A DNA stretch of 60,064 nucleotides, counting the filler, from Jimgerdemannia flammicorona (lineage: Eukaryota): the NCBI GenBank assembly GCA_003990765.1. It is 3 parts of 3 records of this genome, joined end to end, with 100 filler letters (N's around TTAATTAATTAA, not from the genome) between each part and the next. Parts side by side here need not be neighbours in the genome. Positions count along the whole stretch, not along the records: positions 1 to 19,957 come from RBNJ01001792.1; 2 more parts are not named here. One strand, written 5' to 3'. Position 1 is the first letter of the stretch. Every line of letters starts with the position of its first letter. Of this stretch, positions 3,120 to 52,900 are shown one piece after another. The notes below the pieces were generated by a model. That model searched no databases and was not told where the DNA came from. It saw nothing but the letters and a program-made list of their open reading frames with translations. The translations under genes were made by a program, and so were the position numbers.

Positions 3120-6100
3120 TTATTGCCACGTCGGTGACAACTGCTCAGATTTTTCGCGCATCCGTCGCGCTCGCGTCATGATCTCTGCAAGAAAAAAAAA
3201 GAAAAAAAGAAAAAAAAGATTAGAAACCCGAACCCTAAATCGGACCTCTTACTTCACTCACCCAACACAAGCAAATAAACCCCAAACCAGCCAGTTCCTT
3301 TCTACTCACCTCGACTCTTCTCCCTTACCGCCTCGTCCGCGGAGACTTCCTCAATCCCCTCTCCATCATCCGTCCTCCTTTCCAGCTCCGCCTCGGGTAT
3401 GGCAACCAGGAACGTGAGTACATCAAAGAACCCCTCAGCGGCGGCGCAATGCATGGCCGTCCAACCCTCTGCATCCACGGCATTGACGTCCGCGCCGCGC
3501 TGCTCGACCAAGTACCGCACGATATGCTCGTGGTCGTACGACGCGGCGAGGTGCAGCGGCGTGAGTGACTTAGCCGTCAGGGGGGCGTTGACGTCCGTGC
3601 CGGGAAACTGCTCGAAGACGCGCCGAACCGCCGCCAGGTCACCCGACTGGCTGGCATCCATCAGGAGCGCGATCGGGTCGAAGGAGACCCGACGGACTAG
3701 ACGCGGTACGGGTGCGTCCGCGGTGTTGGGGAGTGGAGGGGGAACAGACGCCGAGCGTTGAATGAAGGCCACAGGCGGCGTGTTCATGTGATTAGAGGAT
3801 GGCGGGAGGAGCGAGTCAACGTGGCGGCGTGCTGGAGCCGAGGTTGAGACCGAGGCAGGGACCGAGGCTGGGGCCGAGGCTGGTGCCGGAGAAGGGAAGA
3901 GAAAGGTTGAGGGTGTGACAGGGAGATTTATTGGGAGGGACGTGGGACGTCGGGGGCAGGGGTCCGAGTGGGTTTGTCTTGGGCCGTTCGGCCACGCAGG
4001 AGGAGAGAGCAAGTTGGGACGGTTATCGGAGTCGTCGTCGTCCCATGCGTTTCGTCTCGGCTTGTTCTGTACCCGCATCTTCAGGCTGGATGGGGCCTCA
4101 TCCAGCCACGCAGGCGGGGAGGGCATGTTGGAGCGGCTGTCTAGGTCATCATCCCATTCGTTTTGTCTCAGCGTGTCCTGCACGCGCATCTTCAGGCTTG
4201 ATGGCAAGGAGGCCGGCAGCTCTGGCAGCGGATGCGGTTTCCTGAAGGCAGACGTCGGTCGCGAAACGGGCGAGTCCGGGTCCTGCGCTGCGGGTAGACG
4301 AAGTGCTGAGGGGACGTCGTCGTCCTCGCCATTGCGTGCCGAAGATGTGGGTATGTATGCTGAAGATGCAGTGTTCAGTACGGGGGATATCGATGCGGTA
4401 GACACGTACTGTTGCCTTGTGAAATTGAATATGCTATTGCCAATGGTATTGATATTGCTATTGCTATTTATCCGGGTATTATTATGCACATTGTCATTAC
4501 TATTCGTACGCTTCCCATCCTTCCGCAACCCATGGAACAAGACGGACTCCAACCCCGACATGGCCCTCTCAAGCCTGGTCATTCCCGCGACCTGCGCGTG
4601 ACGACCCTGGCCCGGGCCTTTCTCCTCGACGGGTGATGTTGCGAATTGTTTCTGCGTGGTGGCAATGATAGCGTCGGTCTCGCCCCACCAAATCTTTCCG
4701 CCGCCGCCGGCAGAGGCCAGGACTGGGGACGGGGACGAAGAGCAGGGGAGGTCAAAATAGGATGGGGAGTTCGAGGTCGTGCGGGTGGGTTGTTGTTGGA
4801 AGGTCTCTGGGGAGAGCACGCGCAAGGAAGCGGTTGAGGTCGAATTCGAGTTTGTATTTGAGTTCGAGGATGAAGACGAGGATGAGGATGAGGTGGAAGA
4901 GGAGGAGGCGGAGGCGGAAGTAGGCACGCGGAAAGAGGTAGCAGAGCGCGGGATCTCAAAGTAGGAAGTCGGCGAAGTGGTCATGGTGCCGAGAGCCGTG
5001 CGCGGGCGCGGACCGATTGTGCCGCTTGGAGTCGGGGCACGCGGAGTGCGCCAGGTCGGAGTTGTGGAGAGGGCTGGGGAGCCTCTGCTTATTGTGCCGC
5101 CGTATGAATTGAACGGGACGGCTGGAGGGCGAGAAGACGTACTCGGAAGGTTGGCGTCGATCGTGGGGGGAGGTGACTTTTGGGCGGCGCCGCGCTCGAG
5201 AGTGCGAGCACCCGGAGTAGGCGGCCGGGTAACGGGCGTGGTTGGACGAGTAGTTGAGGGTATAGTTGACCGAACTGTGGCTGGTGTAGCGGGCTGAGTG
5301 GGAGTGGGCGCACTCGCGGGGCGCTTGAACAGCGATGAGTCGATGCCGTCGCGCTCGTGGCGAGGTGCCGCGGTCCAGGTCTCGCGGCGGACAGTTGGGG
5401 GCTTGAACTTCGTCGTTTCGGCTACAGCCGATGCGCGTTCATTAGGCGCCAGGACGGTGTGTTCCATGATGGCAGGCAGGCGGCCCGATTCGTCCCTCGA
5501 GTTTCCTCGCTTTGGATTGATCACGGCGTTCGCCTTTGGTTTCGTCTCGCTTTCCACCGCCACGCCCTTCTCCAACAAAGCCGATCGAATCTTCGCGACA
5601 GACACGGTATCGACGACCGCAGGGTTCGACGCCGCGCGCCTTGGCGGAATCCGTCCACGCTCTTCGCTCTTCTTCACCTCTTCGCTCCTCCTCACCTCCT
5701 GCTTGTCATCCCCCTCTCCACCAATTCCTAAACTCCACACCGCGCTGGGTGTGGGGCACTTCCACCCCTCCTCGGGCTCTGGACTCGTTACTATCCGGCC
5801 CAGTGCTGACGCAGGCCTACTACGCACGGATCCGGTGGGCATGGGTGTAGTAGCCCTGGACGCCACCGGTGAGGGTAAGGGCGGCCTCTTTACGACAGCC
5901 GTCGGGAGTGGCGACGATGCCCTCGGGTCTACGGGGGACGACGTTGGAGGCCTCCTTAAGACAGCGGTGGGCAATGGGGAAGATGCCCTCGAGGAAGAGG
6001 GCGAGGAAATTACAGGCCCGCCGAACATGGCGACCTTATCAAGGATACGTGGGCTAAGGCGGGGGGGGGGCCCGCGTGAGAAGTTTATGAAACCCGGGCT

Positions 6101-7552
6101 GTTATTGGTTGGGTTGTCGGTGCTCGGAGCGAACGATCCGATGGGGATGCGGAGGTGCAGGGCGGGCGGACGGAGATTCTTGAGCGTGTTACCGAACGTC
6201 TGGGTCGGCGTTGGGGTCGTGGAGCGAGAGGTTTGGTCTGGTGCGCTCGTAGATAACGCAGGAGGGGAGGGGAGGGGCTTGGAGTTCGGATTGAAGGGCC
6301 TGGAAGGGAGCGGGATCCGTTCTTGAAAGGGAGAGGGTTGGTCCGAGTTGCTACGTCTAGGGAGGTTGTTAGGATTTGTTGGGTTGTCGGGACGAGGTTT
6401 GATGTTGTCGATAGCGTCGCGAGTCTCGGGGACGCCAGTCTTGGTGATGTTTGATCCTTGCGCGACCGGCGCGATCTCTCTCATCACCGGCTTGCTCTCG
6501 ATCGTTTTGGTTCGGTTCTCGCGGTTTTTATTGTTGGGCTCGATCAACGGGCTCTTCGTCCTTGTAGCAAGCGTGTGATGTTTGGCGCGCTGCTCGTTGG
6601 CTCTCGTATGTTCGTCATCGTCATCGCTCGGTTCGGTGAAGGACCCGTCACCCTGCGCATCAGAGCGATCCGTGTCTTCGTCATCGTCTTCCTCGTCGCT
6701 CTGCGAGGCAGAGTCAGTGAGGGCGCCCTTGGATCGGGTGACGACTTGATGTGAGATAGTTGTGAGGGGAGGTCGTGGATCGGTTGATGCGGATGTGAAC
6801 ATGATGCGGTTTTCAAAGTGATCGGGCGACAAAGAAACAATCAACAAACACTCAAACCCACCTTCACCAATCTCCCAAAACGCTGCGCTACAACTCTCGT
6901 CCGCGCAATCGACAGGCCTAAGCCCCTTCCCGTTTCTCCTATTCGGATTGGCACCCAGCCTCAGCAGCCTCGTGACCACTTGCGGCAGCGCATTAAAACT
7001 CGCGAGGTGTAGCGCGGTGTTTCCTTCGCCCCACTCCTGATCCATCATCACGTGGACGGGTCGATCGGATCTCATGACATCCCGCGACGCCGTGGCGAGG
7101 AACTCGAGCAGCTGGAGGGCGCAATCCTCAGCGCCGGCCATGCATGCGAGCTGGACGGCGTTGAGCGGGCCGATAGCGGCGCCGAGGAGCTTTGTCGATT
7201 CCGGGATAAGCTCCGGATCGAAACTGTAGTGCCCGCTGCCGCCGGGGGACGTCGGCCCGTTCTGGTGCGAGCAGGCGAGGAGGACGTGGATAGCTGCGAT
7301 AGGGTCGGCAGCATCGAGGTGGGAGCGGAGGGTGACTGGGTCATCGTCGGCGAGGGCACGGAGGATTAAGCGCCAGAGGGCACGCTCGTCAGGCCGGAAG
7401 GGCGAGGTGAGGAGGAAGGCGGTAAAGGCCGAGGTTGGGGAACTAGGACGAGTTGGTTGGGGAGGGGAAGGGTTCGGGGTGGGCGTGGGGTGTGGCGTAA
7501 ACGGGCGGTCGGCGCCGGGGTGTGGGAGAGGAGGTTGTTCGAATAGCATCAT
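3120..7552 (-). CDS. Large ankyrin-repeat protein: N-terminal ankyrins, long Pro/Ser/Thr-rich linker, C-terminal RVxF + ankyrin module (ASPP-like putative PP1 regulatory subunit)
   Basis: 1416-aa ORF with GNTALHLA, RRVSFDPIALLMDASQSGDL, LTPLHLAA and GWTAMHCAA. A GT-AG intron at 3185-3309 joins a last exon 3120-3184 (EIMTRARRMREKSEQLSPTWQ*). A probable in-frame intron lies at 6745-6861. Confidence 0.85.
3983..4204 (-). repeat. Intragenic tandem duplication, 2 x 111 nt (37 aa)
   Basis: PSSLKMRVQ...WDDD...SPPAW occurs twice; cgcatcttcagg starts at 4074 and 4185. Confidence 0.85.
5810..5992 (-). repeat. Intragenic tandem repeat, ~3 x 66 nt (22 aa)
   Basis: SRASSPLPTAVLRRPPTSSPVD / PRASSPLPTAVVKRPPLPSPVA / SRATTPMPTGSVRSRP. 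Confidence 0.8.
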
Positions 7553-9419
7553 CGATAGAGAATCATGGGAGATTGGTTGGGAGGACCAAGAGGCGAGCTG
7601 GGCTGGCCGTAGAGAGTCGGGCGTAAGAAGGGGGGGAGGGTGGTCGTGAATCGTGGTGGTCGATGATTTTGTTGGGTCGATGTCGATGTCGTGTGGATGG
7701 CGTGAAGGAAGGGTGGCACTAGGGCGGATGTGTGCAGTTAAGATGGTATTTTTTTTTTTTTTTCGCGGGGCAGAGAAACCGCGCTAGACTTGAACTTCAC
7801 CCGCTTGTATTTGACAGAACCGCGGTGACGAAAAGGGGCTAAGAGAAACCTTTCCCGAATGAAATAGCCGATCTCCTTTTCACGGCGATGCAATGTTTTA
7901 TTTTTATTTTTTTTTAAAGTATTTCGCTAAAGTGGTGCGATGATGTCCGCGTGTCTTTTCAGTTACGTCGTCGTCAGCAGTTCCAAGACCGTTAGCGCCA
8001 AGACGAAAAAGTGCAAGCTCATCGATCCGGTCGATAACTGGTCACCGGTGCGCGCCCCTCGAGCATTGTCGGCGCGCGGTTGCAAGATGATCTAATTGTG
8101 TGGTCATGGCGATAGCGGCGCACACCCGCACCACAGCGAAAAGACATAATGGTGACGTATTGGGCCCCCAGATCGGGCAGTCCCGTGATCCATTCCGGTA
8201 AATCGGGGGACGCAGTCACCCCCGTATTTGGCACGGGCGTGATGAATAACTCTGGTCCCCTACCCCCTTTACAAAAAACCTTTATTATTATATACAAACA
8301 CACCCGGTCGTTGCCGGGGCTTCGCCAAAAAGTCCCTTTTTGCGTAGTTTGATGTCCGTGCCCGGACTGCACGTGATTCTATTTATGGCGGCAAGGGTTG
8401 GTGGTGCGTAATGTTCATGTGTTCTTTCGATGGATAAGACCCAAAATGATTATCCAACTCCTCCCTCCTGGACGTAATGTTCATATGTTAATTGTCCTCG
8501 TGCACGCCGATCTCACATTAATGCACCCACTTATATATATCCATACTTGCTTGCTTGCTCATGTAATCCGGACGTTTGAACAAGCATGTAGCGACAGGAC
8601 CGCTAATTTTTTTTTCATGTGTAATTACTTCCCGCTCGACATGAATGCGCCGAACAAAAAACATCATCCAGTACATGCTGTTCATGGGTCCTCCAAATAT
8701 GGGCCTTCATTTCCTCCAACAGCCAAAAACATAGACCCTCGTCGAATGACCCGTGCGCACGTCGTTCATGTGTCCCCTGACGGATGGATATGGATTTCTC
8801 GAATGCGTACCCCAGACCCTTCCAAATTGTTTCATGTATATACCCCGTGCTCACGTGTTGATAGGACCCATTTCTACGCAACCCAGAAGGACGATCTCCC
8901 CGAGCTTTCATATGCACAGACGCTCATGTGTCCTCTCAACAAATGCATAATCTGAGACAAGAGCAAAACCGGCCCAATTCATTTGGTCCCATGGCACACA
9001 CGCGCACAAATAAATTCGAGATTAATGGCCCACTGCCGTAAATATCATATTGGACATTTTACGTCACTCATTTATCAGGCTTGAAGATTTTATTTCACTG
9101 TCACTTTGCTTGTGCTTTTTAATGATTCAATAACTAAAATAATTGTAGTAAGCAACAGAGCTATAGCCTAATGCTCTTCTGGGAGCAGAACATGAATTTT
9201 TTCAGAGAATGTTTCTTCATTTTCATACTATAAATTCCTCTATAACTGGATTATCATCAATAAAAATACCAAAATCTGGTGTATTTCTTTCATTCTGACA
9301 GAACCACCTTAAAGAAAAATAACTATTATTTTTTGTTTTGACTAAAATAATCTATATACTTAAAATAACTTTATAAAAGAAATATATAAGTATATAAAAA
9401 GAAAAATAAATATCAATTT

Positions 9420-10349
9420 ATGACAAAAAACATAATCAATGAACTCCAAGAGAAAAACAAAGAATTATTAAACCAAATCAAACAATTAAAAGCACCATTA
9501 TGAGTTAAGCAGTTGAATAATGAAGAAATTGAATAAGAGATAATCAAATATTTAGGGAATAGACACATTACTCATAATTCTGATCTAGTAGTAGTTGATA
9601 AAATTGCCCAAATTAATAATGAAGAATACTAATTAAGACTTTGCAAGAATTATCCTGCTGAAAGTTCTTAGTAAGGATAAATTTGCTTGCTTTATCAATA
9701 TATTAAATATTATGATAATTGATTTAAATACTATAATGAAATAAATGATACTAAAAAAGATATTTTCTCTACTCTACAAGATTTAGATTTAGAGGAAAGT
9801 AAGAAAATTATTGAAAAATTATTAGAAGAGGATAAGATAAAAAAGAAATCATTTGAAGAAGACCAAAGAGAAGAGTTTAGAAATTATTATGATCTTTATA
9901 GTGTTTCTCTTAAAGATATGGTAAAAGATATTTACTGAATAAACTACAAAAGTTAAAAATGAATATAAAAGTTTCAAGAAAACTATTAAGAAACTTTTAT
10001 TAGATTATTCTGAATTAATAGAAGAGGATATAGAAAATGAAAGAGCTTATTAATTAGAAGAAAAATTATAAAAATTATTAGAGAAAATCAAAAATAGTAA
10101 AGATAAACTCAATGAGGTTATTATGGGAATTATTAAGAAATGAGAAGTAGATATTAAAACTCACTTTATCTCTTTTACTGAAATTAGCAAAAAATGAAAT
10201 GATAAAAAGGAAGTTTCTTTAAAAGAGAAAATTAGAGATAAGTTGAAATTTTTGAAAAAAGAATATAAGAAAAATACTATTCAGAAAGCTAAGATTAAGG
10301 AACTTCAAGTAGAATTAAATAAGTAAAAAAGATTATTAGCAAAAGAGTA

Positions 10350-10442
<93 letters not shown>

Positions 10443-11262
10443 AAAACTCAAAAGGTAGAAAAAGAGAACTTGTAAAGATAATTATATTTATTCAAAAAAA
10501 GCTTTATTTAAAATACCAAGCAAGTTTAAGATATTAGAAATAAAAATAAAAGGTAAATTTTCACAATTATCAGAAAAAGTTAAGTCTTAAACTCAAGAAA
10601 TAGTTATTTAGATAGAAGTTAAAACTAAATATATAATAGTAAGAGAGTTAATTTACACAATTTTGAAATTAAAAGAGTAGAATAGAGAGAGTATTTGTGA
10701 TTTTTGCTCTCACTTTGAAAATAGTGAAAATCAATCTATCTATTAAATTAGAACTTATAGCAAAGTAGCTGGCAAAATAATTAAAAATGACTATATATAT
10801 ATAAACTGTAAAAAAAAGGGTTTAAATGATAAATTACTCAAATATAAAAGATATAAAAGATTAAAAACTAAACTAAATTTTGACTTTTAGAGTAATAAAT
10901 ATATTTGCTATTATAGATATAATGAAAATACAGAGAAAAAAGCACTTTCACTTTTACCTAATGAAGAGATAAGTTATTCAGTATTTTATAAAAGATAGAT
11001 AAATACTTTATAAGAGAAAAAAGATCAATTAGCAGTAGAAGTAGACAGATACTTATCTCAAAGTCTTAAAGTTGTCAAAGACTAACATAAAAGACAAAAG
11101 TAAGAAATATTAAACAAGATTAAAAAATTAGAGATAGAAGTAGAAAGGTTAAAAAAATTAACTCTTAAAGAACTAATAAGGAAAATTAATGAGTTAAAAG
11201 CCTAATTAGAGTAATAAAATAGCCAATTTGTAACTCAAATCAAAATTAAAAAGTGATCTTAA
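9420..11262 (+). pseudogene. Decayed intronless Lys/Glu-rich coiled-coil ORFs resembling genes of Mollicutes-related endobacteria (MRE)
   Basis: Frames stay coherent if stops are read through: MTKNIINELQEKNKELLNQIKQLKAPL*VKQ..., ...IIKK*EVDIKTHFISFTEISKK*NDKKE..., ...QEIVI*IEVKTK, then ...ICDFCSHF...LE**NSQFVTQIKIKK*S*. Many TAA/TAG fall where Gln fits and five in-frame TGA fall where Trp fits. Very AT-rich. Origin is inferred, not searched. Confidence 0.55.
10351..10441 (+). repeat. Interrupted poly(A) tract inside the MRE-like ORF
   Basis: About 90 nt of A broken by TAC, splitting a coding-like frame. Confidence 0.9.
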
Positions 11263-11290
11263 TCAAAAGTAAAGAAGTAAATATTTTTAT

Positions 11291-13140
11291 TTATTGAGAG
11301 TGTGGTTTTAGATAAGTAATATCTTTAAATTCATCTCTAATATAGAGGCAAATATTGTAATAAAGGTATTTCTGATATTTTAATTTTATATAAGGAGGTA
11401 CTAGTGCTAGAAATAACAAAGCCTTAATTTTTCTATGACTTTTGAAGCCTTGGATTTATATTTACTAGTCTTCAATAATTTTAATTCTTAAAAAGAACTA
11501 TTGGCAATTTCTTGGATTTTTACAGTATCTGAATTTACTTTGGTAAAAAGAAAATATTAAAACTTTTATATACTAGATAGCTTTTTGAAGTAGATTTCAA
11601 AGCTATTAAGAATATTAAAGTATTGAAAACCATCTTTGCTATTATAATACCAAACTTTATTTAGTTTAATAATACTGGATCTTTTCATCATATCAATAAT
11701 ATAATCTATATAATCTATTGTATTTTTATAATAAAGCCTTTTAATTAGGCCAAAACTACTATCATACTTGAATTTAGTATAGCTGAGTACTATAAAGTTC
11801 AACTCAATACTTTTATAATACCTATAAATTACTAAGTATATATAAAATCAAAGAGTGGTTTTATTTTTATTTTGTCTATCTATATTATTATAAGTAATTT
11901 TCAAATACTTCTCCAATTTATTCAATTTATTAATTCCATTAAAAACTAGACTAAGTATATTATTTAGGTCTTTTCCAAAAAGTTCATTCTTATTCAGTAT
12001 ATAGTTAATTTGCTTATATATTACTTTATCTTAGATCTTAAACAAATGTACTTTATAAGTACTAAGATAATATATTTTACTAATTTATTGATCTGAATAA
12101 GATATATAGATATTCTGAGCTTAGTTATAACTATAATGAGTAACTATATTAATACTATAGAATAATATCTTATCTTTTGGTATAAAATAATTCTAATCAA
12201 TAAGGTTTCTTTACTCTTCTACTAACTTGGTATTTTTGTTATAATAGTTTTATTTTAACTTGACTTTAGTGAAATGTTCTTTATATCTCTTTAATAAATC
12301 TTAAGTCTCTTTATCTTTATAAGCTTTAAATTATAAGTTATTCTGTAAATATTAATAAATATTATATGAATCTGTCTGTAAACTTATAATTTGAATATAC
12401 AGAGTTAGCTAATACTATAATTTGCAGAATATATTATATTTGAGAGTATGCAAAGTACTATCTTCTTCTAAACTGGCTAAAAAATCATATAAACAAACTT
12501 GTAGCTCATTTTTACCAGTAAAAAAATAATTAATTAAGTAACTTGATTAATATTTCTGATTGGGCTAAGCAATTCATAGACTTTGGTAAAATTTAAGTGA
12601 AAATTCTTCACTATAGTAGTTATATTTATATTGATGACTATCTTGGGTTTTCACTTAGACATTTTTTTGGTATTACTATAGAGCTGTGATAGAAGAATAT
12701 TATTTAGCAAATGATTTCTGATATTTTCAAAATAAGCTTAATCAATTTTTAGTATATTTAGATAGATTTTTTGATAAAGAGATATATTGTGATCTTAGTA
12801 ATATAATATTCTTTTATTAGTGTGTATCTTTTTCTTAAGATAGTAACTAGTACTTATAGATCTACCATCTATAGCTTTGAGTTGAGTTATTTAAAAGATA
12901 TCTTGTTCTGACTTAGAAAGAGCTTAAAAAGCCTTATATATTCTAGCAAATACTTTATTAGAAACTTTAAAAGAGCAACTATAACTACAACCTACTTTCA
13001 AAAACTCAAATGCTTTTTTATATTCAATTTGTTTGATTTTTAATAATATTGTATATTATATATAGGTATATATATATATATATATGTATATATAACTTAT
13101 TTACATTAGATCCACTATGGAGCCTAGAAACTACAGCAGT
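11291..13140 (-). mobile_element. Hypermutated DDE transposase remnant, Sola-like
   Basis: Decayed motifs: ITYNNIDRQNKN (family DNCxGQNKN), ELNFIVLSYTKFKYDSSFGLIK (family F..GHTKF..D..FG.IK), YN*AQN, and C-terminal QKYLYYNICLYIRDEFKDITYLKP with a stop at 11291. The 5' boundary is approximate and no TIRs were identified. Confidence 0.7.
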
Positions 13141-13940
13141 TTGTATTCTCTTTTAAAGTAAAAAAATTATTCCTTAAACTAAGAAATACATAGTCTATTA
13201 AAAAATATTTAAATAAAGAAAAGATAACTTATGAAAAAGCTCTCAAACAGATATTGGTAGAATCATTTCAACCAAGAAAAAAAAAAAAATTAGAAGAATA
13301 GAGGACTCATTGGATCACAACATGATACATACAAAGGTCCCTGCCATAGTAGTAATAGTAACGATAATTGTTTAAGAGATGACTGAAAAGATTGCTTCTT
13401 TATCAACTAAATATATCTTATCTCTTACTTTTTTCTTGCATCCCTTCTTTGAATATCAGTCAAAGGCATAGCCAGCAAAGCCAAGACTCTTACAGTAGGT
13501 TGTTCCTGATCTCTGTTTGTGGAGGACAAAAGGTATTCTTTTTTTTTTTTTGCATTAGTACATAAATTCAGCATGCCCGACACCATTCCCACTTTATCAA
13601 CAAGTGATTTCGCGCATTGTTGCTTACGAATCACACAACATGCCTAATACTAAATCTTAGCTAGCTATGGAATTTTTTTTTAGAAGCGATCTGGATATTT
13701 GCACTGTGAATGAGACACGTAGTATCAGAAAAGCTTAACTAAAAGTTGTTATAAGAAATTTAAAAGAATCAATTGTCTTCAGAGGGAAATAGTAATCAGT
13801 TAGGAACAGTTAGGAAGATATCTCTCGATTGCTATCCTCAACAATTTACAATTATTTATGTGCTAATGCTAAAAGACAATTTGATTTGAATTACATGAGT
13901 AGAATGCAATCTAATATCATTTTCAGACTTATCACTCCTT

Positions 13941-16769
13941 TCACCCACTAATTGAGCCTGCCAAATTAAAATTTCCCAGTTGGCCATTATTGTCCAACCG
14001 GGAAAACAGAATCTTGCGAGAGCCAACAATGACTACCAGGTAAGCGGAAACATGTCCCTGCATGTGCATATTAGCAACATGCGGTCCATTCCAATAACTC
14101 GCCAACTGAGCGGCTGGTCCTCCTGGGAGTGTGATCCAATGAATGATAGAGTTTCCAGCTCGTCTCTCGTTTCCAATTCGGATAGTATCCCAAGAGCCAA
14201 ATAGAATTTGTAGTACATCATCTGCACTCGAATAGCCTTCTAGAGTTGATGCTTTATGAAGGCGATTGGCTCCAGCAATATTCAGAAAATCGATCTTAAT
14301 CACCTTAAATTCGATGATTATTGTGTTGCCTGTGCTTGGTATTTCGATGATCAAGTCTATCCAGTCCATTATCGCCATTGAACTGTGGAAATGTGTAAAA
14401 TGTGTAAGCAAAGTTATCGTTAGGTTGAATTATAGACAATCTTTCACATTCTTGCCTTTATGACTTTGAACTCTACGTGTCCTTGCAGAAGTGGATTCCT
14501 GAGAAGCGTGTAGTAGATGCTATAACGGTGATGCTCTTCTGCCTTGTTGAAGTCGTCGAAACCAACGTCACGTTGGCTCATCAACCTTTCATAGCAGCCC
14601 AACAACTGCGAGACATCTCCAGTGGTTGCAATTTTCCGAAGACCCTCCTCAATATCCGTTATGCGCAACTGGTAACGGCTCAAAACAGCCATTGCGAAGC
14701 GTTGAACTTGAACTAAGTTTGTAATTTGTAGCTGCTTCCCGGGCTCTTCTTCGGCATACGTTAGACCCCCAGCATAGCGCATAAAACTTAGCCATGCCGC
14801 TTTGCTCTTCATGGTTTCCTTCTTCAGAATATTTGGGCGGCAACAAAACATAAATATTCTTGTCGTAAAGGAAGCCAACATTAGACACACAGGACAAGAC
14901 TTATCGCATACCAAGTCGGAGAATCGGAATTGTAAAGGCAACGTGTTATATTCGATCGGATCACGCCAAATATCGGAACCCAATGCTGAATTACGGCCAC
15001 CGACCTTTTCGAGGATGTCGGCTGCAATAGGTGAGCTGGCAAGCATCTGGAGCAAAGTTTCGGATGTCTCCCAATTGGAAGGGTTGTTTGGATTGGTCGG
15101 TCTATTCCTTGCCAAACCCTAATATGTAAAGTTACAACGACAATGACAGTAAGAATACAGTAAAGATGATCATACAATGTCGAGAAAGATTTTTATAGCG
15201 CTTGTCACTCACCTGAAGATACTCTAAGCATGTATTTGTGTTAAAGACACGCTGAGCAGTAGCATATGGCGAGAAACGGTAGCCATTGTAGTGGCGCTCC
15301 ATGATACGGAAGTGCTTCTCGACATCTCCATTCGAGCAGAAGAGTTTCAGAGCGGAACGCACATCGCCATAACTGAGGCCACAGAATCCAGGGAGCTCTT
15401 CTTCATCGGAAACGTTCGTTGCGATATTAAAACCGCTAGTAGCGTCGGCCAGCGAGAGTGGCAACACTCCGGTAATGAAACATTTTTCAATTTTTTGATA
15501 GCCCATCCCAGATTTTACGCACGCCCAGAAGTCCTTAAGTGAGGACTGGCCCCTGTGGATATTGTCATAGCTTGTAGTGTCATTGAGATTCAAGTATTCG
15601 TTGAAAAAGGCGTCGTCGTATTCATCGGCCAGGAGGTATATCTGTAAGGAAATACATTTTAGGTCGCATGAGCAAGGCCATCATATTGGCGGAAAAACGA
15701 GATCATCTACTATATAGTTACCCCTTTCACGCCAGCAAGCAGATGTCCGGCATCTCCCTGGGGTACCGCTCGTAATGCCGCTTGGACAACCATAACATAC
15801 ATAGAAAGACTGTCGATAGCATCACTCAAGTTAATAAAAGTCTGTATTAATTGTAGGTCTTTGTAGTCACCCAGATAAGTCGCATATGTCATGTAAAAAT
15901 ATCGAATGGCAGTGTTGATCATGTTGAAGAGTTCAGCTTTGGCAATTTTGGGATCAGGATCACGGTCGACAGCAGAGAAATCGAGAGACAGAATGAGATA
16001 CTGGTGGGGCTTGATGGTGCCAGCCTGAACATCCTGGTCAACAGCAAGGTCCTACAAGCAATGGGCAGTAAGAGTTAACAACAACGGAGACAAACTCAAA
16101 AGAGAAAGTAAACAGATGACATCGCTACTGACCTTGAAGAGTTTATCATAATGCTGGCAGTGTTCCACCCCATGGAAATAGGCAAGCATACTGAGCGTCA
16201 GGGACTTGCCGAACCGGCGTGGCCGTAAAAAGAGTAGCACAAGATCCAGAAAAGATTCGAGTATAGTTATGTATCCAGTGCGATCGAAATATGCCACTCC
16301 AGGGGTAGTACGGATCCGATAAAAGTCAGAGAAGGCGTTTTGAGGAAAACCTCGGAATTGGCCATTGAACACCAGCGTTGACGTATTTGAATCACTTGAA
16401 ACATTTTCGGTGTTTTCTTGGGATTCCATCGAATCTAATTCCTCGAAGAGGAGATCTACAAAGGGCAAGTCAAAATGAATAATGAAAGGCAAAAGTGTTT
16501 GAGATATTGGAATGCGGTGTGGTGTAGTTTGGAGATAGTAATGTAAACGCAGCGTTCTACATACCCGCCGAGTATAAACAGGTGTTTAAAATTTCTGGGG
16601 TGATCCAGCCTTGAACGTTGTCGAGCTTTCCCATTAACAAGTCAGCACGATCATGATCGGTAACTTCGATCATCGCGCCAGGATAGAACGAAAGATAACC
16701 AGGAGTCAACGCATTGTAACCTCGGTCCGCTAGGTAATAACGGGAGGGGTTTTGCATGTCTGATTGCAT
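13941..16769 (-). CDS. SH3 + AAA-ATPase-like P-loop NTPase + PD-(D/E)XK nuclease (Crinkler-like architecture), 7 exons; last junction possibly frameshifted
   Basis: Exons 16769-16565, 16455-16133, 16051-15722, 15641-15213, 15118-14912, 14821-~14456 and 14382-13941. The first five introns are GT-AG and preserve frame. Motifs: SH3-like YLADRGYNALTPGYLSFYPGAMIEV...GKLDNVQGWI; YFDRT; Walker A LRPRRFGKSL; Walker B IYLLADEYD; FITGV; YNGYRF; nuclease IDLII...IIIEFK. Confidence 0.8.
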
Positions 16770-17054
16770 CTTAGGAGGGTACAAGGCAGAAAATAAAAGT
16801 GTAATTATGTAGACACGCGTTACCGGTAATTTTTTTGGCCAGTCCCGTGACGTCACGGTTCACTTTGTCTGGTTTTGTTGCAGCACGCCTCATATCATAT
16901 ATTATTATGGCACGGGTTACATTCAACGCGGATTAATGTATATCAGCGAGGATTGCGAGTAGTATATGGAATAGGTGGGTGAAATTTGAACTGAAAAGAT
17001 TTCTATTATGCGATGCAGGGTGTACGATATTTTTTTCTGTGTATTTTTTTCCGC

Positions 17055-17055
<1 letters not shown>

Positions 17056-17143
<88 letters not shown>
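17056..17143. repeat. Poly(T) run (88 nt)
   Basis: Direct observation; lies between the Pib2-like 3' end and the promoter of the SH3-ATPase gene. Confidence 0.9.
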
Positions 17144-17317: not shown

Positions 17318-18443
17318 TTAAAACGTCGACCACTGCCAGTCTGCCGGCACGGACGGAGTCGGATTGAAGTTCGTCTCTGGTGGAACGGGCAAAACGTACG
17401 GTTAACATTCGGAAAGGAAAGGGGTATATAAGCGCGAGATGGATCGACTCCATGATCTATCTGGCGGATTAAATGCCGATCTCATTCCACCTCTTCTCTC
17501 TCCCCCAAACGATCCAAAAGGGATAAAATGTGGCAATGCTGAGACATACCGGGAACGCGGCTTGACGCAATCTTGATGCCCTCGGGTTGTGGGCGGACGA
17601 TGTCTAAAGGTGGAAGGGGAAGAGGATGAATTTGATTTCCGATAAAGGCAAAAAAACCGATGCAAGCCGACCCACCGGCCCACCCCAAACAGCAAAACTA
17701 AAAAAATAAATAAAATACCCACCTTCCCTCCCCAGCTCTGTAACCCCTTCCATCCCCTGTGGCCCACCCCCAACCCTCCTGACAATCTTCCCGCTCGTCT
17801 GTCCCGGCGCCGCTGCCACCGCGGGCCCTGTGCTCGCCGTCTGGGTTCCCGGCGTCGACACCACGTTGCTCTTCCTCCTTGTGGCCCATCGATCAGCCTC
17901 CTTCGCGCATGCGTCGCACGCCTTGGCCGCGACACCGTTGGGGTTGAACTGAGCGTTCTGGTCGAGGCGGACGAAGCGCGTACAGTGTGCGGCGCAGAAG
18001 AGGTCGCCGCAGCGCCGGCAGTGGTGGCGCCGCTCGAAGAGACCAAAGAGGGTAGCGCAAGTCGGGTGCGCGCAGGTTGTAGCGGACGAGTCGGGCTATT
18101 TTTGGGTGAGGACGTGTGTACGGCGGTGTCTTGACGTGAGAAGGGATGCAGTTCCCACACGCCCACGGTCATACTTATTCCTTCCACTTACACCCACCTT
18201 CCAATGTTCCCTCGTCGGCGGTCCTGTCACTGTTTCCGAAAAACCCTCTACCGTACTTCCTCCCGCCACTATGACTTTCTCGCCTGCTGCCCCTTCCTTC
18301 CCCAGCATGACGGCCCTTCCCGTGGGCGTGGGAGTGCCCGGCTCAGAGGCCGACCCTACGGAGCTCCTGACTTCGGGGGTGGGATTGTTGGCCATGGTCA
18401 ACTGTGTCGGGCGCTTCTTAGTAGTGAGTGCGTAGATATCCAT
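17318..18443 (-). CDS. PIB2: Pib2-like FYVE-domain protein (~243 aa, 4 exons), putative TORC1 regulator
   Basis: Exons 18443-18198, 18095-17723, 17603-17550 and 17376-17318, all GT-AG, total 732 nt. FYVE signature HWKPD...RRHHCRRCG...ACDAC. C-terminal tail SVPADWQWSTF* resembles the yeast Pib2 tail motif. An alternative start is at 18395. Confidence 0.85.
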
Positions 18444-19957: not shown

Positions 19958-20057
19958 NNNNNNNNNNNNNNNNNNNNNNNNNNNNNNNNNNNNNNNNNNN
20001 NTTAATTAATTAANNNNNNNNNNNNNNNNNNNNNNNNNNNNNNNNNNNNNNNNNNNN
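19958..20057. other. Artificial contig linker N44-TTAATTAATTAA-N44
   Basis: Exactly 100 nt with stop codons in all six frames. Confidence 0.98.
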
Positions 20058-23000
20058 CCAATCCCCCTAGGGGGGCCCCCCCCTCCCACCCCCACTCGCC
20101 CACTACTCTGTTTGCAGATCTCTTTCACCAGGCAATGACATTTACCACCCTGAGGACTCCAACCCACCTACCATCCAGTCATCAGATCCTCCATCAACCC
20201 TTCCCATCTTGACAACTTCTCCTGTAAATCCATCTGCCACCCCTCCTCGAAAACAAAGAGCCAATGTCCAGCTAGCCCTACTCACACTGCTAAAACCCAC
20301 CCTACAGTGAGCCAGCTATTGCCCACACCACCTACTAGCCTAGACTTCAAATCCTCCCAGCAACCTCTCTCTCCATCTGGTCTCCTTGCCACACCTAGCT
20401 GATTCTCTACTGCTATCCAAAAGTCTCCCAGAACCTCACACTCCCCCAGCCAATGTTCAGGCATTTGTATATAACCCCCTACTTACCCTACATTGTAACA
20501 CTCCTCACAATCTAAACAGCCACCCTCCACAAGATACCCAGCATGGAAATTCAACATGATATTCCTCCTCAACATCCACCACCAAACCACTCAGAACTTA
20601 GGAGAAAGCCACCACCACACTTCAGTACTCTATAACCAGACTCCTGCCCAGTCCCACTCCTCTTCAATCCCCACAGCCTGCCAGCTACTTGGCCATAGAT
20701 CCTGGCCAAGACCCTGCTGACACTCTACTCCATCACTAATATCAAACTCTGCAAGCAGAACACCCCTCAGAAGGAGTCTGTCCCATTGCCATATTACTGG
20801 ACCCTACAACACCTCCCTCTCATTGCCTTACCAGTGCAGTCCTATCCGGTGTGCTCCATCCACCACCCCTCACCAGAAGCCCTTATACTGTAGCTGTCGG
20901 CTTCCAGCCAGGCCCACCAGAGAAAGCAAATCTCCTGAGAACCCCCAAGGAGAGAACCTCATCTCCCATACCTTCTGCATCAGTGGCACCCAACCTCCCC
21001 CCTGCAGTTCAATAGCCCTCTTCAACCACCAAGCTCATAGGCAGTGCAGCCACCTAGGGAAGTCCACAAGGCCTAGTCCTCCTCTAACCACTGGTGTTGT
21101 AAGAGTATCCCAACTGATCTGGGACCTCCTCTCTGCCCAGATCCAATCTCTAGCCAGTTTTGTCCGTTGCTTCACCACCCAGGCCAGAAAGTCTAAATGG
21201 TAGGCTATATACCATAGCTTGGAGAACCAGTAGACATTCAAGATCAACATCTGCCCTGTCAGGGAGATGTGGCATCCTTCCCAACCTCTAAGAGCCTCTC
21301 CCCAAATGGCCACTCTCCTCTCCCACCATACTCATGGCAGAACAGATCTATATACAGAAAGGAAAATATCCAAATACTGCACCACCTCTCCTGCAGGGAC
21401 AATTGTTCCAATGACATCCCCTCTCACCAGCCCATTCCCTAACACCATTGTCTCACACTTATGCCAGTTGAGTTTTGCCCCAGAGTGCACCTTATACCAT
21501 TCCACTGTCTCCTTGAGCACCTCAATGTCTGCTATTGATCCAAGGCCAACTACCATATCATCTGCAAAGGCCCCCACCTTCCACACTACACCATATATAG
21601 AGAGCCCGGCCACCCTCTGACATAATCTATCCATCAAAGGTTCCAGTAAAAGGGTATAAAGGATGGGAGATAGTGGGTCTCCCTGAGGAACTCCTCTTCC
21701 CAAGGGAAATGCCAAACCCCTGTGGCCATTATACATCAGCACTGCCCTACTACCCTCTAACAAATTCAGCTTAGAAGCCTGAAACCTTGGGGGAATACTA
21801 ATTCTATCCAGCACCTTGCCTAGCCATACCCACTGAACATGGTTATAGGCCTTCTCCTGGTCTAAAAAGACCAGTCTACCATCTAGCCTGTAAGCCTGGG
21901 CCCCCTCAATGATGTCATGCACCCAGGCAGTCCCATCTCTGATAAGCCTGCCTCCTACAAAACCTCGCTGCTCCTTACCCAGAATCTGTTGGGCAACCTT
22001 CTGTAGCCTTGCAATAATCACCTTAGTCACCAACTTCCTATCCATATCCAGAAGCATAATCAGCCTCCAGTTCTTCCAGTCCTCCCTCCTCCCCTTGTCT
22101 TTATACAATAGGGCCACCAGTCCCAAGTCCTGCTCACCAACCCACATGCCATCCAAAAGAACATGGTCACAGAGGGCAGCCATCTCTGCTAATACTCCAG
22201 GAACCTTTGCCATCTTCTTCCAGAAGTCCCAAGGTAACCCATTCTCTCCTGGCACTGTCTCCAACTTAGTTGCTGCAAGGACCCTCTGGATCTCCTCCTC
22301 TTGGACCAGTAAGATCAAATCACCCAGTCCTTCTACTTGTGATAGCTCCCACTCCTCCAGCATGTCTTCAATTGCCCCCTCATCTGCCCCCCCTTCCCCC
22401 TCACTCCACAACCCCCTCCATTTCTCCTTCAGCACACCCAAGATCTGCTGCATACCATGCACCATATCTCCCTTATCATCCAAGACCCCTTCCCATTGGT
22501 GGTGCACCCTCCTAGTCTGGAGAAGCCTTGACAGGTACCTAGTGGGCCACTCTCTCTCCTCAAGCCCCTGCCACCATAGTCTGGCAGTCATTCCTTTCAT
22601 ATGGGTCTCCTCCTCTGCTTGCAATATTTGTTGCAGCTCCATTACCTCCAATTTCACTTGCTCCAACCTCCAATCCTCCACCTCTTCAGAATTAAGCAGC
22701 TCAGCCCACTCCATCTGCAATCTAATCAGCCTATTAGAAGTACACCATACTTGCTTCCTCCTCTGTCTCCCAGCCTCCCTACCAGCACTTCCCCAATAAA
22801 TTCTTGCAGCCTCCTTTAATCTCATCTACCAGATATCTACAGAAAAGCCCTCATGTATTCAGGTGGCCATTCTCACTTGGACATCCACTACCCATGGATC
22901 CCACAACTCCTTCTTGGCCAGCAGGGAGGAGTTAAGGCGCCAATGTCTGGGTCTATCTCTACTCCCCCCAAACTGGCCCTGCCCCAATAACCCCCAGTGA

Positions 23001-25816
23001 TTAGACCAAGGGCATCACTCCACCTTCAGAGTCCTCCAAACATCAGCCCCCCAACATTCAGCCATCAGAATCCAGTCAATCCTGGTACCCAGTCTATTTA
23101 TCCAGTGTGTATAGACTCTTTTGTCACCCCACCATGTTCTGCCCATATCCCCTAAGGAGCTAAGGTTCTCCACCTCCTCCCACTTATCCAGTCCACCACT
23201 CCTCCCACCCACACTCCTCCCTCCATCAGTTCTATCCAGCTGTGGATTCTGTACCATATTAAAGTCACCTCCCAGAATATTGACACCTTCTGCCAAGAAG
23301 ATACCCTCCTCTAACAGATCCCTAATCCACTCAATCTGCTCACCCCTAACTACAGGGCAGTAGCAGGAGCCAATCCTCACCGATTCCCACCCAGGTAGGT
23401 GTCATTCTCCCCAGACCAAATGGTCCCCCCAGCTCTGAATTCTGCCCAAGTCTCCTCTACCCTTCCTCACCAGAATCACCACTTTGCCATTCCAAGCAGT
23501 AGCCCCTCCCCATTCCTTAGTCCACTCCACCTGATCTTCCTCATCCTCATACCATATATCCTGCAGTAAGAAGAGATCAGCCTCCAATCCCTTAAGCCAA
23601 GTAAAAATGTTCCTACGCTGCCCTGATCCCTATAATCCATTCACATTTAGCAAGAAAATGTTAGTTGTACTGTTCATAGGGAATAATGTTGTTTGTCAAT
23701 TGCCCCCTCTACAACTCCATATTCAGCTCCTCCTGTGCCAAGTCCAAGACACATTCTGCAGTCAGTTCCTTCTCTTCAGTCACTCGCACCTCCAGCCCAG
23801 CCAGAAGTTCCACCATTGCCCTATCCTCCTTTTTCTCAAAGTCCTCCTGGTATTCTAGGCACGCCTCCTGCCAGAGTTGTAACCCATGATACTCTGCCCA
23901 ACAATAGGTAGCCCGCTCACCAGCAACAGTTGCCAACTCAGCCTCCCTCCTCTCATCCACCACATATCCCTCCTTCTCCTTGAGAATCACAAGGATCTCT
24001 GCCTTCAATGCCTCCATCACTCCATCTCCATGCAAAATCTGTGCCCAATGCTCCTCCAGTATCACACACAGATCAACTTCTCCCAATGCTTCAGCTGCAA
24101 GGTTATCTATCACCTTGCTCATCCACAGCAGGTTCCCCACCTCCTTCCCTCCAGGTATCCCTGGCCACCCAGCATCCAGCATTGTAGTATCAGCTCCCAC
24201 ACTGGTAGCCTCATCCCACTCCTCCTCTGGGACATCCACCAGCTCATCCTCACCAACCACCACCACCTGTCCCCCTTTTGCCACATCTGGGATCCCAAAG
24301 TGAACTCGCTGGGCCCCCTACATTGGCACATCCTCCACCTCCCCTCACTTTCCAACTGGGTCCCTCCTGATAAGTGAAGGGAGGGTGCTATCCAAATCCT
24401 CCTCCCAGACCTCAAATGTACCATCAGCATAGGGATCCTTGCTCAGTGCCTCTCCAGCCCCTTCCACATTCGCCACCACCTCCTCTTCTCCTTTGCTAGC
24501 CCAGATGCTGGCTTCGATGCCTCCAGACTCCTCAGCCCCATCCACCTTCTTCTTTGCTCCTTCTTTCATACTCACCAAAAGCTCCCTCTGCCTCCTATGC
24601 CCCTGGGCCCTCTCCCACTGCCTCTTGTTAGTGTGAATATGCTTCCCATCTATAATCTCCAGATGCATCGATTCCTCAAACACTCTCCAGACCTTCACCC
24701 TCCTCTCAACTGCACCACTCAACTCCTCCAGAGCCTCCAGCAAGTCCTCCTCCTCCTCTTCACTTCCTTTTATCCTTGACACCTTACAGACAAAAGCTCC
24801 CCACATTAGCACTGAGGGCCAGTTACTTGTCTTCTCTGTAGCCTCCTTTTCCACCAGCCAAATCCTGACATTGACATCACCCATCCTAAATGTGGTCCTC
24901 TCCTACATCTAGAATCCAATGTCCACCATGTCACCATACTCCCCCATCACCTCCTCCATCCTTTTTCTAGTCTCCATCTTTGTCACTGTTGGCACCCCCC
25001 TCACTAAGAGCTGTACCACTCTGGGGTCTCACCTCAAGCACTGTACCATGGGAACCACCACTTCCCCAACCACCACTCCAGTCTTCAAAGCCTCATCCAG
25101 TGGGCCCACCTCCTCAAAGTCCACCTCAATCCCCTCCAGTCCCTTCAGAAACTTCACCGAAGCTGCCACAGCCACCTGCTTCGAAATGAGCCCCAGGACC
25201 ATCCTCGCCGTCACTGCTAAGCCCCGAAAGCACAAGGTAGCCACGAACTCCGAGATTGACTTCTTGAGCAATAGGGCCACCACCAGCTCCATTATACCAT
25301 CTGCCAGGTCCCCCCTCTGCATTGGGAACCCCTGCCCTATCTGGCCATCAGCTGTCACATCTCTTTTTTTTTCCTGATCCCCCATCACACTCCCATCAGC
25401 AGTCATACCCCCAGCCACAGCCCCTCCAGCCCCTATGCTCTCATCTCTCCCCTGAGGGCCACTCCCTCTCCTGATGCTAGCCTTGCCCTTTCTCTCAGCA
25501 GCACCAGCCCTTGTTCCTGCAGGCCATCCACCCACCTTCACCTTGTTGGCAAAGCTTGAGAGACCCAGCCTTCCATCAGACCCACCAGACCCCAGTCCTC
25601 CTCCTGAGCCTCCACCACCCTTCGACCCTCCAAAAGCCTCCATTCCCAATCCATACCCTCTTCCCACCTGCTGCCAACTGAAAGCCCCAGGTCCACCTAA
25701 CCCAGCACACCCGTCAGAACTCTTGCTTGATGACATTTTTATAGTACCTTTTCTCTAAGTTATGCTGAAAACCATTGCTTGAAGTTTGTGTAATGCGAAT
25801 TGTACAGGAGAAAGGT
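20058..25816 (-). mobile_element. L1/Tx1-like non-LTR retrotransposon, copy 1 (near full length, 3' end cut by contig start)
   Basis: ORF1 runs from 25736 and ORF2 from ~23677. ORF2 has APE motifs (NVNG, LLQD, GGDFN, RIDW), RT motifs (WRLIMLL, DQEKAY, GVPQGDPLSP, FADD) and a C-terminal HWLGEC zinc-finger remnant. Premature stops are present. Confidence 0.92.
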
Positions 25817-28800: not shown

Positions 28801-30974
28801 ATTCAGAGAGAAAATGTTAGTTGTACTGTTCATAAGGAATAATGTTGATTATCAATTACATCCTCTACAAATCTGCATTCAACTCCTCCTGTGCTAAGTC
28901 TAAGTTATGTTCTGCAGCCAGTTCCTTCTCTTCAGCCTTCTGTGCCTCCAACCCTATCAGAAGTTCAGCCATTGCCCCATCCTCTTTTTCCTTGAAGTCC
29001 TCACAATATTCTAGGTATACTTTCTACCAGAGTTGCAACCCATGATGCTCTGCCCAACAGTTGGCAGCTCTCTCACCAGCAATGACTGCCAGCTCAGCCT
29101 CTCTTGCCTTATCAACCTCATATCCCTCCTTCTTCAGGAAAATTGCAAGTATCTCTGCCTTCAGTGCCTCCACCACCCTATCTTCACACAGAATCTGCAC
29201 CCAGTACTCCTCAGGCATCATATGTGGATCCACTTCCCCCAACTCCTCAGCTGCAAAGTTATCCATCATCTTGCTCATCCACAGCAGGTTCCCCACCTCT
29301 TTCCTTCCTGGCATCCCTGACCTTCTCACATCAAGCATCATGATATCTGCCCCTATACTGCCAGTCTCATCTCACTCCTCCTCTGGGACATTCACCAGCT
29401 CATCCTTGCTAACTGCTACCACCTGTCTACTTTTTATTATATCAGGAACTCCAAAGTGTACCCACTGCACACCTTTCATCAACACATCCTCTGCCACCTG
29501 ACCCCTTACAGCTAGACCCCACTGGATCAGAGGGGGAGTACTATCCAAGGTCAGTTCCCAGACTTCAAATGTGCCATCAACAAATAGGTCCATGCAAGGT
29601 ATCTTCCCAGCCCCCTCTAGGCCCTCCACCACATCTTCTCCTCTCTTACTAGCCCAGACACTTGCCTCTATACCCTCAGACTTCTCAGAGCTCCCAGCCT
29701 TCATCTTCACCCCTCCTTCTATGCTTGTCAGCAGCTCTCTCTATCTTCTACATCCTTGAGCCCTCTCTCACTGCCTCCTGTCAGTGCAAATACATTTTCC
29801 ATCTACAATCTCCAGATGTATCAACTCTACATACAACTTTCAGGCTTTCATCCTCCTCTTGACAGTACTACTCAACTTCTTCAGAGTCTCCAATAAGTCC
29901 TCCTCCTCCTCTTCACTCCCTTTCACCCTCAATATCTTATAGACAAATATCCCCCACATCAATACTGAGGGTCAGTCACTTGTCTTTCCTGTGGCCTCTT
30001 TCCCAGCCAGTTGATTCCTGACATCTATATCACTCATCCTGAAGGTGGTCCCCTCTCATATCTAGAAGCCAATATCCACCATATCACCATACTCTGCCAT
30101 CACCTCCTCCACCCTCTTCCTAGTCTCATTCTTTATCACTGTAGGCACTCCCTTCACTAGTAACTACACCACCCTGGGGTCTCACCTCAAGCACCATACC
30201 ATGGAGACCACTACCTCCCCTACTGTCACTCTAGATCTCAAAGCCTCCTCCAATGAGCCCTCCTCTTCAAAGCCCACCTAAACCCCCTCCAGACCCTTCA
30301 GGAACTTCACTGAGGCCACCCCAGCCACCTGCTTTGAGACAAGCCCCAGGACTATCCTCACCATTACTGCTAAGCCCCAGAAGCACAAAGTAGCTACAAA
30401 CTCTGAGATTGACTTCTTGAGCAACAGTGTCACTACCAGCCCCATCACACCATCCACCAGATCTCCCTTCCACATCAAGAACCCCTGCCCCACCTGGTCA
30501 TTAGCTATCATATCTCTTTTTTTTTTCTGATTCCCCATCACACTTCCATCAACAGTCACTCCCCCAGCCACAGCACCTCTAGCACCTATGCCTACAACTC
30601 CCACCTAAGTACCACTCCTCCACTCGATACTAGCCTTGCCCTTCCCTTCAGCAGCACCAGCCCTAGTTCCAGCCAGCCATCCACTTGCCTTCACCTTATC
30701 CGCAAAGCTGGAGGGGCCAGGCCTTCTCCCAGTTCCACCTGATACCAGTCCTCCTCCAGAGCCTTTGCCACCCTTCAACCCTCCAAAAGCCCCCATCCCC
30801 AGTCCATAACCTCTCCTCACATTCTGCCAACCAAATGCCCTGGGTCCACCTGACCCAGCATGCCCATCAGAACTCTTGCTCAATGATATTTTTATAGTAC
30901 CTTTCCTCTGAGTTGTGTCAAAAAACTGTTGCTTGAAGTTGGTGTAATGTGAATTGTACAGGAGAAAGATGGTG
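25817..30974 (-). mobile_element. Same LINE family, copy 2 (older, interrupted by copy 1)
   Basis: Shares the 5' UTR, ORF1, APE and RT (FADN). Its ORF2 3' region ends abruptly at the 5' end of copy 1. It has more stop codons than copy 1. Confidence 0.9.
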
Positions 30975-40013: not shown

Positions 40014-40113
40014 NNNNNNNNNNNNNNNNNNNNNNNNNNNNNNNNNNNNNNNNNNNNTTAATTAATTAANNNNNNNNNNNNNNNNNNNNNNNNNNNNNNN
40101 NNNNNNNNNNNNN
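40014..40113. other. Artificial contig linker N44-TTAATTAATTAA-N44
   Basis: Identical to the linker at 19958-20057. Confidence 0.98.

Positions 40114-52864: not shown

Positions 52865-52900
<36 letters not shown>

Follow-up and report, generated by a model that had tools for sequence, protein, structure and literature searches.

A candidate SH3-headed ATPase-nuclease of the Crinkler-type plan in the fungus Jimgerdemannia flammicorona

A minus-strand locus at positions 13941-16769 of a 60,064-nucleotide stretch of the Jimgerdemannia flammicorona genome assembly GCA_003990765.1 (hereafter the window, that is, the whole stretch analyzed, made of parts of three records joined end to end, filler included) raises the question of whether a short exon encoding an SH3-like domain, an AAA-type ATPase and a C-terminal nuclease are the parts of one gene and, if so, what kind of protein this gene would make. 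The explanation that we favor, with moderate confidence, is that of a genuine intron-bearing gene encoding an SH3-headed, ATP-gated nuclease of the Crinkler-type conflict family, the SH3 domain of which would make a noncanonical contact. The predicted protein, of ~769 amino acids (aa) and belonging to an early-diverging fungus of the arbuscular-mycorrhizal type, would consist of a divergent SH3 domain on its own exon, an acidic linker, an AAA-type ATPase of the PF09820 family and, after a middle part that is helical, a PD-(D/E)XK domain resembling PDDEXK_9 at the C-terminus.

Six minus-strand open reading frame (ORF) fragments located between positions 13941 and 16859 assemble into a single gene when splice sites are read from the sequence and checked by script. 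The resulting gene, at 13941-16769 on the minus strand, comprises seven exons with a frame of 2310 nt (769 aa) and six introns of 109, 81, 80, 94, 90 and 65 nt, every one of which has GT..AG ends. It is present once in the window, as determined by tblastn with two related proteins, P0002 and P0006. With the last intron placed according to what is referred to below as model A, its parts are as follows.

16565..16769, minus strand: exon 1, 205 nt, phase 1, with the ATG at 16769; encodes the 68-aa divergent SH3 domain (P0001).
16456..16564, minus strand: intron 1, 109 nt, GTATGT...TTGTAG, phase 1; reads in frame into exon 2 at 16455.
16133..16455, minus strand: exon 2, acidic/Ser-rich linker and start of PF09820, with the Walker A motif RPRRFGKS at 16202-16225.
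15722..16051, minus strand: exon 3, middle of the ATPase domain, with phase-0 GT..AG borders.
15642..15721, minus strand: intron 3, 80 nt, the sole intron seen removed in a sequencing run.
15213..15641, minus strand: exon 4, Walker B motif ADEYDD at 15612-15629 and end of PF09820; the most conserved exon.
14912..15118, minus strand: exon 5, middle region.
14448..14821, minus strand: exon 6 (model A), middle region, EEHHR helix and first nuclease strand VEFKVIK.
14383..14447, minus strand: intron 6 (model A), 65 nt, GTGAAA..CAG, with CTAAC inside.
13941..14382, minus strand: exon 7, PD-(D/E)XK core, QLASY helix and VGSRK strand, with the stop at 13941-13943.

At the exon 5 junction (...FRFSDL/KKETMKSKAAWLSF), the spacing agrees with that found in P0002 and in more distant relatives. 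Transcript evidence came from one sequencing run, X1, the RNA nature of which is a guess (share 0.13). A 151-nt X1 contig with 0 differences to the window joins position 15641 to position 15722, skipping 80 nt with CT..AC ends on the plus strand, and intron 3 is accordingly absent from a sequence that is otherwise identical to the locus. Other X1 contigs, lying on 15722-15816 and 15879-16053, also show 0 differences to the window. Because the gene carries six spliceosomal-type introns and is represented by a spliced contig, bacterial contamination was ruled out as its source.

Whether exon 1 encodes an SH3 domain, as the first-pass annotation of this DNA had read it, was addressed both by structure prediction and by profile comparison. 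Modeled by AlphaFold2 (AF2) with a 3-row alignment, the 68-aa exon-1 peptide forms a small beta-barrel (predicted local distance difference test [pLDDT] 83.4; predicted template modeling score [pTM] 0.66), in which DSSP delineates four strands of at least 3 residues (10-14, 33-41, 44-49 and 52-56), a short C-terminal helix and a final strand at residues 65-67. Comparison of this model to the Protein Data Bank (PDB) with Foldseek returned 14 matches at E<=1e-3, SH3 entries accounting for 44/44 among the matches listed; the best match was OSTF1 (3ehq_B), with an E of 2.2e-4, a TMq of 0.80 and a root-mean-square deviation (rmsd) of 1.1 A over 59 columns. In the top ten matches, classical eukaryotic SH3 domains (OSTF1, myosin IB, Gads/Mona, Grb2, Src, intersectin) share the fold of the head with TMq values of 0.65-0.80 and rmsd of 1.1-2.2 A over 54-60 columns, and the pattern ...LSF..G..I.V......G.L....G.I... 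is common to these domains and to the heads of the present family. A profile built from five such heads (alignment A2) and run against PDB sequences matched the SH3 domains of intersectin-2 (E 1.1e-5) and myosin IB (1.6e-5) and a total of 185 sequences at E<=1; judged by molecule name, 60/60 among the matches listed bear an SH3 domain. Pfam SH3_1 matches 4/5 heads at E<=1 (best 1.5e-4). On exon 1 itself, Pfam matches are to SH3 models only, and the Crinkler head PF20147 gives none. The heads are conserved at 45-70% identity, with core and Gly positions retained. Exon 1 is thereby confirmed as a true SH3 fold, divergent in sequence.

That this head belongs to the ATPase-nuclease body is suggested by its occurrence on the same body in other fungi. 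Of 152 candidates in a search with exon 4, 21 proteins passed E<=1e-3, and the top two, P0002 from Paraglomus occultum (partial, 716 aa; 87% identity) and P0003 from Ambispora leptoticha (476 aa; 84%), both start with a head of the window type, followed by a linker and an ATPase of the window type. A HMMER search with the head over 1.84 billion representatives gave 7 matches at E<=1e-3, 3 of which were kept. One of them, P0026, consists of a head and PF09820, and the other two, P0025 and P0027, are head-only ORFs ending in ...GM, as does the window's own exon-1 ORF, which is the end predicted from read-through of the conserved G/GTATG donor. P0023 and P0024 (FG-GAP repeats, Calx-beta), together with P0028 and P0029 (internal repeats), were dropped as repeat-driven head matches. 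Of the word-index searches run with the head, one returned 20 candidates, none of which was scored, and another just P0003 itself. Head identity to the window is 37/53 for P0002, 32/63 for P0003 and 32/65 for P0026. Because the splice sites are canonical and the same join is found in P0002, P0003 and P0026, we accept the phase-1, in-frame junction of exons 1 and 2 across intron 1 that had been proposed earlier, and intron 1 is predicted to be spliced out in J. flammicorona as well. The placement of the head on an exon of its own is compatible with the exon shuffling that had also been put forward.

The alternative would be that the SH3 exon lies outside the mRNA, as a separate small gene or a prediction artefact, and that the protein starts at the Met of exon 2 (MESQEN...). 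We regard this as very improbable. No X1 read or contig spans the exon 1-2 junction, an in-frame ATG does occur early in exon 2, the relatives P0006 and P0007 are head-less, and P0025 and P0027 stand in the databases as head ORFs of their own; the ends of the latter two, however, are those expected from donor read-through, and head and body are joined in three independent annotated models. Both the conservation of the head and its canonical, in-frame junction further argue against a stand-alone exon.

The body behind the head belongs to PF09820 (AAA-ATPase_like), which is matched above the cut-off of 26.1 bits by both the exon 2 ORF (E 2e-12, 47.8 bits) and the exon 4 ORF (E 2.7e-6, 27.8 bits), and both Walker motifs are present (Walker A, RPRRFGKS, aa 146-153; Walker B, ADEYDD, aa 291-296). 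Downstream of it, the tail carries the nuclease motifs D632 (14355-14357) and E647-F-K649 (14304-14312), so that the order of ATPase and D...EFK nuclease given in the first-pass annotation holds. The tail is homologous to that of bacterial PDDEXK_9 carriers, with D...ExK kept. In BLASTP, the relative P0006 aligns to P0021 with an E of 8e-21, from Walker B to the GRxD strand, within the PF08011 span of P0021 (E 2.5e-11), a model matched only by the bacterial-type P0021 and P0022. The family alignment places D, ExK, QL..Y and G.RK opposite D, ELK, QL..Y and GARK of these two proteins. Further, 30/30 nearest clusters of P0002 in the ESM Atlas are PF09820+PF08011 proteins, and residues 85-701 of the P0002 model, which do not include the head, align structurally with one such bacterial cluster (TM 0.65/0.77). 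When fungal and bacterial tails were compared directly with hhalign, the match was local, spanning only 42 columns at QL..Y..G.RK (E 0.0018, probability 14.9). The window gene thus has in common with the bacterial PF09820+PF08011 proteins (P0021, P0022 and the Atlas clusters) a two-domain body, the Walker motifs and D...ExK...QL..Y...G.RK. It differs from them in being eukaryotic, in having six introns and an added N-terminal SH3 domain, and in its fungal tail, which harbors an insert of ~45-60 residues after ExK and is not detected by Pfam PF08011. Exon 7 modeled alone by AF2, a piece without the first helix and strand of the domain, has a pLDDT of 88.8. By its motifs, the protein is a putative nuclease.

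A number of observations weigh against reading the locus as an intact SH3-headed nuclease gene. The window head falls below the cut-off of Pfam SH3_1 (PF00018), with an E of 0.018-0.039 and 14-15 bits vs 22.9; the best-scoring head of a relative, that of P0027, is still sub-cut-off (20.6-20.8 bits vs 22.9 and 21.8), and Pfam reports no SH3 match at E<=0.1 in full-length P0002 and P0003. Canonical SH3 domains contact PxxP ligands through the ALYDY tyrosines, the ligand tryptophan, and a proline and a tyrosine in the 3-10 region. Alignment of the profile with intersectin-2, read onto A2, shows that every one of these positions is substituted in 5/5 heads except that of the second ALYDY Tyr, which is kept in 3/5. 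Since most of the canonical contact residues are substituted, PxxP binding of the ordinary kind may not be assumed, and the earlier description of exon 1 as a PxxP-binding module had to be given up. It is by these replacements, and by its position as the sole N-terminal domain of an ATPase-nuclease, that the head departs from classical SH3 domains. No signal-peptide-like N-terminus is seen in the sequence. No X1 read or contig falls on 16122-16828, across the exon 1-2 junction, or on 14304-15515, which includes the exon 6-7 junction, X1 as RNA being itself a guess. As for the tail, Pfam nuclease models, PF08011 included, match neither the nuclease-core ORF of the window (E<=1) nor 8 relatives (E<=0.1). 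The exon-7 model, a partial domain, found nothing at E<=1e-3 in Foldseek, and its best match in VIA, human EXO5, was weak (Z 4.7, rmsd 3.0, 77 aligned); about 18/50 of the VIA matches listed are PD-(D/E)XK-type nucleases by our reading, all with Z<5. A family profile run against PDB sequences gave 4 rows, all at E>0.8, and hence no solved relative by sequence. Finally, the same side of the balance includes the reading frame at the exon 6-7 border.

In the family, the first nuclease strand is separated from the catalytic Asp by a spacing of K + 7 residues + (R)IDL, which in P0002 reads ...VNGDNGQIDL. The window encodes NGDNG one base out of frame from IDLIIEIP, and the difference may be placed by sequence comparison at the following position.

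14361..14364, minus strand: one-base length difference relative to the frame of the P. occultum relative (NGDNGQ-IDL).

As a consequence of this arrangement, the phase-0 splice that is consistent with the family (model B, a good GC donor, AAG/GCAAGA, at 14455, exon end at 14456) runs out of frame to a stop at aa 646, and a P0002-like donor at 14476 (model C, exon end at 14477) leads to a stop at aa 639. Exon 7 is in frame solely with the donor AT/GTGAAAG at 14447 (model A), which has a poor consensus and reads ARISMAIMDW where the NGDNG stretch would stand. The window copy could, therefore, be a decaying or nuclease-dead pseudogene, frame-shifted at exons 6-7, whose product would end before the catalytic D and ExK and whose 769-aa frame would owe its existence to chance, through an alternative donor 8 nt downstream. 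Besides the early stops of models B and C, this alternative, which we consider rather unlikely, draws on the 3 extra residues that model A puts between K and IDL compared to the family, and on NGDNG, conserved in P0002, sitting in an unused frame of the window, which indicates either that one base changed recently or that the assembly is in error here. In addition, P0010, a relative from Geosiphon, looks frame-shifted elsewhere, and its C-terminal end matches an alternative frame of the window. Everything else in the gene is open, however, with 80% identity to P0002 over 694 columns; past the shift, 146 codons of exon 7 follow without a stop, and 137/163 positions of the nuclease region (aa 591-769) are identical in P0002. 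Model A gives intron 6 GT..AG ends as well as a CTAAC box, and the locus, or an identical copy of it, was found in a spliced contig. Decay would also have to be reconciled with the automated models of P0002, P0004 and P0010, each of which skips part of the nuclease core at this very spot and each differently; that the models of three close relatives fail here suggests a non-canonical intron across the clade instead. Taken on its own, the question of whether the window copy yields a whole nuclease is one on which the chances are about evenly balanced.

The relation of the gene to Crinklers was apparent from its relatives. PF20147, the Crinkler head, is found on P0005 from Mortierella (2.8e-17) and on P0009 from P. 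occultum (2.1e-19), in both cases ahead of a homologous body, and the proposal that the body is of the Crinkler NTPase-REase (restriction endonuclease) plan was borne out. Passages of PMC5289972 describe the C-terminus of the majority of Phytophthora Crinklers (CRN) as NTPase + helix-turn-helix (HTH) + REase, behind heads that are either ubiquitin-like (Ubl) or alpha-helical, and the pair of NTPase and REase as prokaryotic and linked with transposable elements; in Rhizophagus, Crinkler-like proteins with REase domains are known from passages of PMC6131194. Crinkler proteins of the NTPase-(HTH)-REase type (Zhang et al. 2016, as summarized in PMC5289972), such as P0009 and P0005, thus share with the window gene a homologous body and the same head-linker-NTPase-REase plan. 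Unlike theirs, the head of the window gene is an SH3 barrel, not a ubiquitin-like fold, and no LxLFLAK or HVLVxxP-type motif is seen.

In a quick maximum-likelihood (ML) tree of 23 rows, the SH3-headed proteins (the window gene, P0002, P0003 and P0026) fall in one clade, as the check by phylogeny called for in the first-pass annotation brought to light; this 6-row clade (SH-like approximate likelihood ratio test [SH-aLRT] 100) also holds P0004 and P0010, the N-termini of which are missing, and is nested in a 9-row clade (96) with P0009, P0008 and P0011. Compared to P0009, the window gene has 133/238 identical positions in its ATPase and 65/165 in its nuclease region, and its exon 4 is only 58% identical to that of this Crinkler-headed protein. 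For P0002 (Paraglomus), P0003 (Ambispora), P0004 (Endogone) and P0010 (Geosiphon), identity to the window gene is 72-87%; strong constraint, recent transfer or assembly cross-contamination could each explain such a high identity across genera. The ATPase-nuclease body is likewise frequent in Mucoromycota and in a truffle, Choiromyces venosus contributing 8/21 of the exon-4 matches, and to call the module mainly bacterial was consequently an overstatement. A metagenome scan identified 9 loci, two of which are close, the soil contigs L001 (1518 bp) and L002 (1253 bp), with 76-78% nucleotide identity; because of their short length, neither extends as far as the head or the exon 6-7 junction. P0011, from J. 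flammicorona itself, has NifU_N ahead of the same ATPase-nuclease body, a 'head' that probably reflects two neighboring genes fused by the gene model.

An SH3 header had been thought undescribed. The term 'SH3' is absent from both PMC5289972 and PMC6131194, and no description of an SH3 head was found in the literature, the head catalogue of Zhang et al. 2016, which might list one, lying outside the search. To this extent the claim stood; as an architecture, the SH3-ATPase-nuclease combination is not unique, since it is present, unannotated, in public protein sets (P0002, P0003 and P0026).

An intact protein of this family might also be neither toxin, effector nor immune factor, but a domesticated transposon-type ATPase-nuclease with a DNA-processing or regulatory role, tethered by its SH3 domain to a host complex. 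The association of prokaryotic NTPase + REase modules with transposable elements reported in the passages of PMC5289972 cited above would fit such an origin, as would the lack of a secretion signal in the sequence, the single copy in the window and the high conservation (72-87%) across several fungal genera. The Crinkler head on relatives outside the SH3 clade, the multi-copy state of the family in some genomes, exemplified by the C. venosus proteins, and the retroelement-rich surroundings of the gene all speak against it, although none of the three is decisive. We hold domestication to be unlikely, and retain as our preferred explanation an SH3-headed nuclease of the Crinkler-type conflict family.

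The gene is located between an AT-rich, ORF-poor block and a gene for a FYVE-finger protein, with ankyrin, BTB/SPRY and reverse-transcriptase ORFs nearby. The AT-rich block, at 8001-14000, has a GC content of 0.20-0.37, is almost without long ORFs and adjoins the 3' end of the gene. On the other side, ~70-130 nt upstream of the ATG (16837-16899), the window has a single copy of a short element containing the palindrome GTGACGTCAC. Dozens of X1 contigs match 16847-16899 with 2-5 differences and a summed depth of ~5960, and the element thus has the appearance of a dispersed repeat, or else of a promoter/5' element that is shared. An unbroken run of ~88 T on the plus strand (17056-17143) separates the gene from the ORF with the FYVE zinc finger (17604-18095, minus strand), which is an ordinary eukaryotic neighbor, as is an ORF with BTB and SPRY domains at 33736-35022 on the plus strand. 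At 3302-7783 on the minus strand, a 1493-codon open frame with a GC content of ~0.6 ends C-terminally in ankyrin repeats and is otherwise without a Pfam match. ORFs with RVT_1 reverse-transcriptase domains are located at 21332-22825 and 41573-42655. GC skew ranges from -0.30 to -0.51 in 20001-32000 and 40001-48000 and from +0.33 to +0.51 in 48001-60000, at a GC content of 38-54%, and these three very strongly skewed blocks look like retroelement copies of strongly strand-asymmetric composition.

Under the explanation that we favor, the body of the protein would represent a fungal branch of the bacterial PF09820+PF08011 module, found elsewhere behind a Crinkler ubiquitin-like head, and an SH3 domain would occupy the position of the Crinkler head in one small clade. 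The protein would be an ATP-gated DNA endonuclease, the SH3 head of which would make a protein contact through a non-canonical surface, whether for targeting, delivery or auto-inhibition, and it might act in a conflict setting, between organisms or within the genome, as has been proposed for Crinkler-type proteins. The role ascribed here to the SH3 domain, like any toxic or immune role of the protein, is one that we infer. More tentatively still, a degenerate SH3 domain may have replaced the ubiquitin-like head in a clade of arbuscular-mycorrhizal and related fungi and have been kept there under selection, forming a new head class with a non-PxxP partner.

For the annotation of these fungal proteins, the present observations imply that Pfam-based procedures overlook both the head and the nuclease, and that the automated gene models of three relatives go wrong at one and the same intron, each losing some of the nuclease core. 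For the biology of the family, if the new head class proves true, it would aim or deliver the nuclease, or keep it inactive until a target protein is sensed. Crinkler-type heads may serve in translocation, targeting or regulation, and the SH3-headed lineage, in which the head position is taken by a protein-binding fold that is well understood, would offer a tractable handle on these alternatives, in that the partner of the SH3 domain could be fished out and head swaps with a Ubl-headed paralog of the same genus could be compared.

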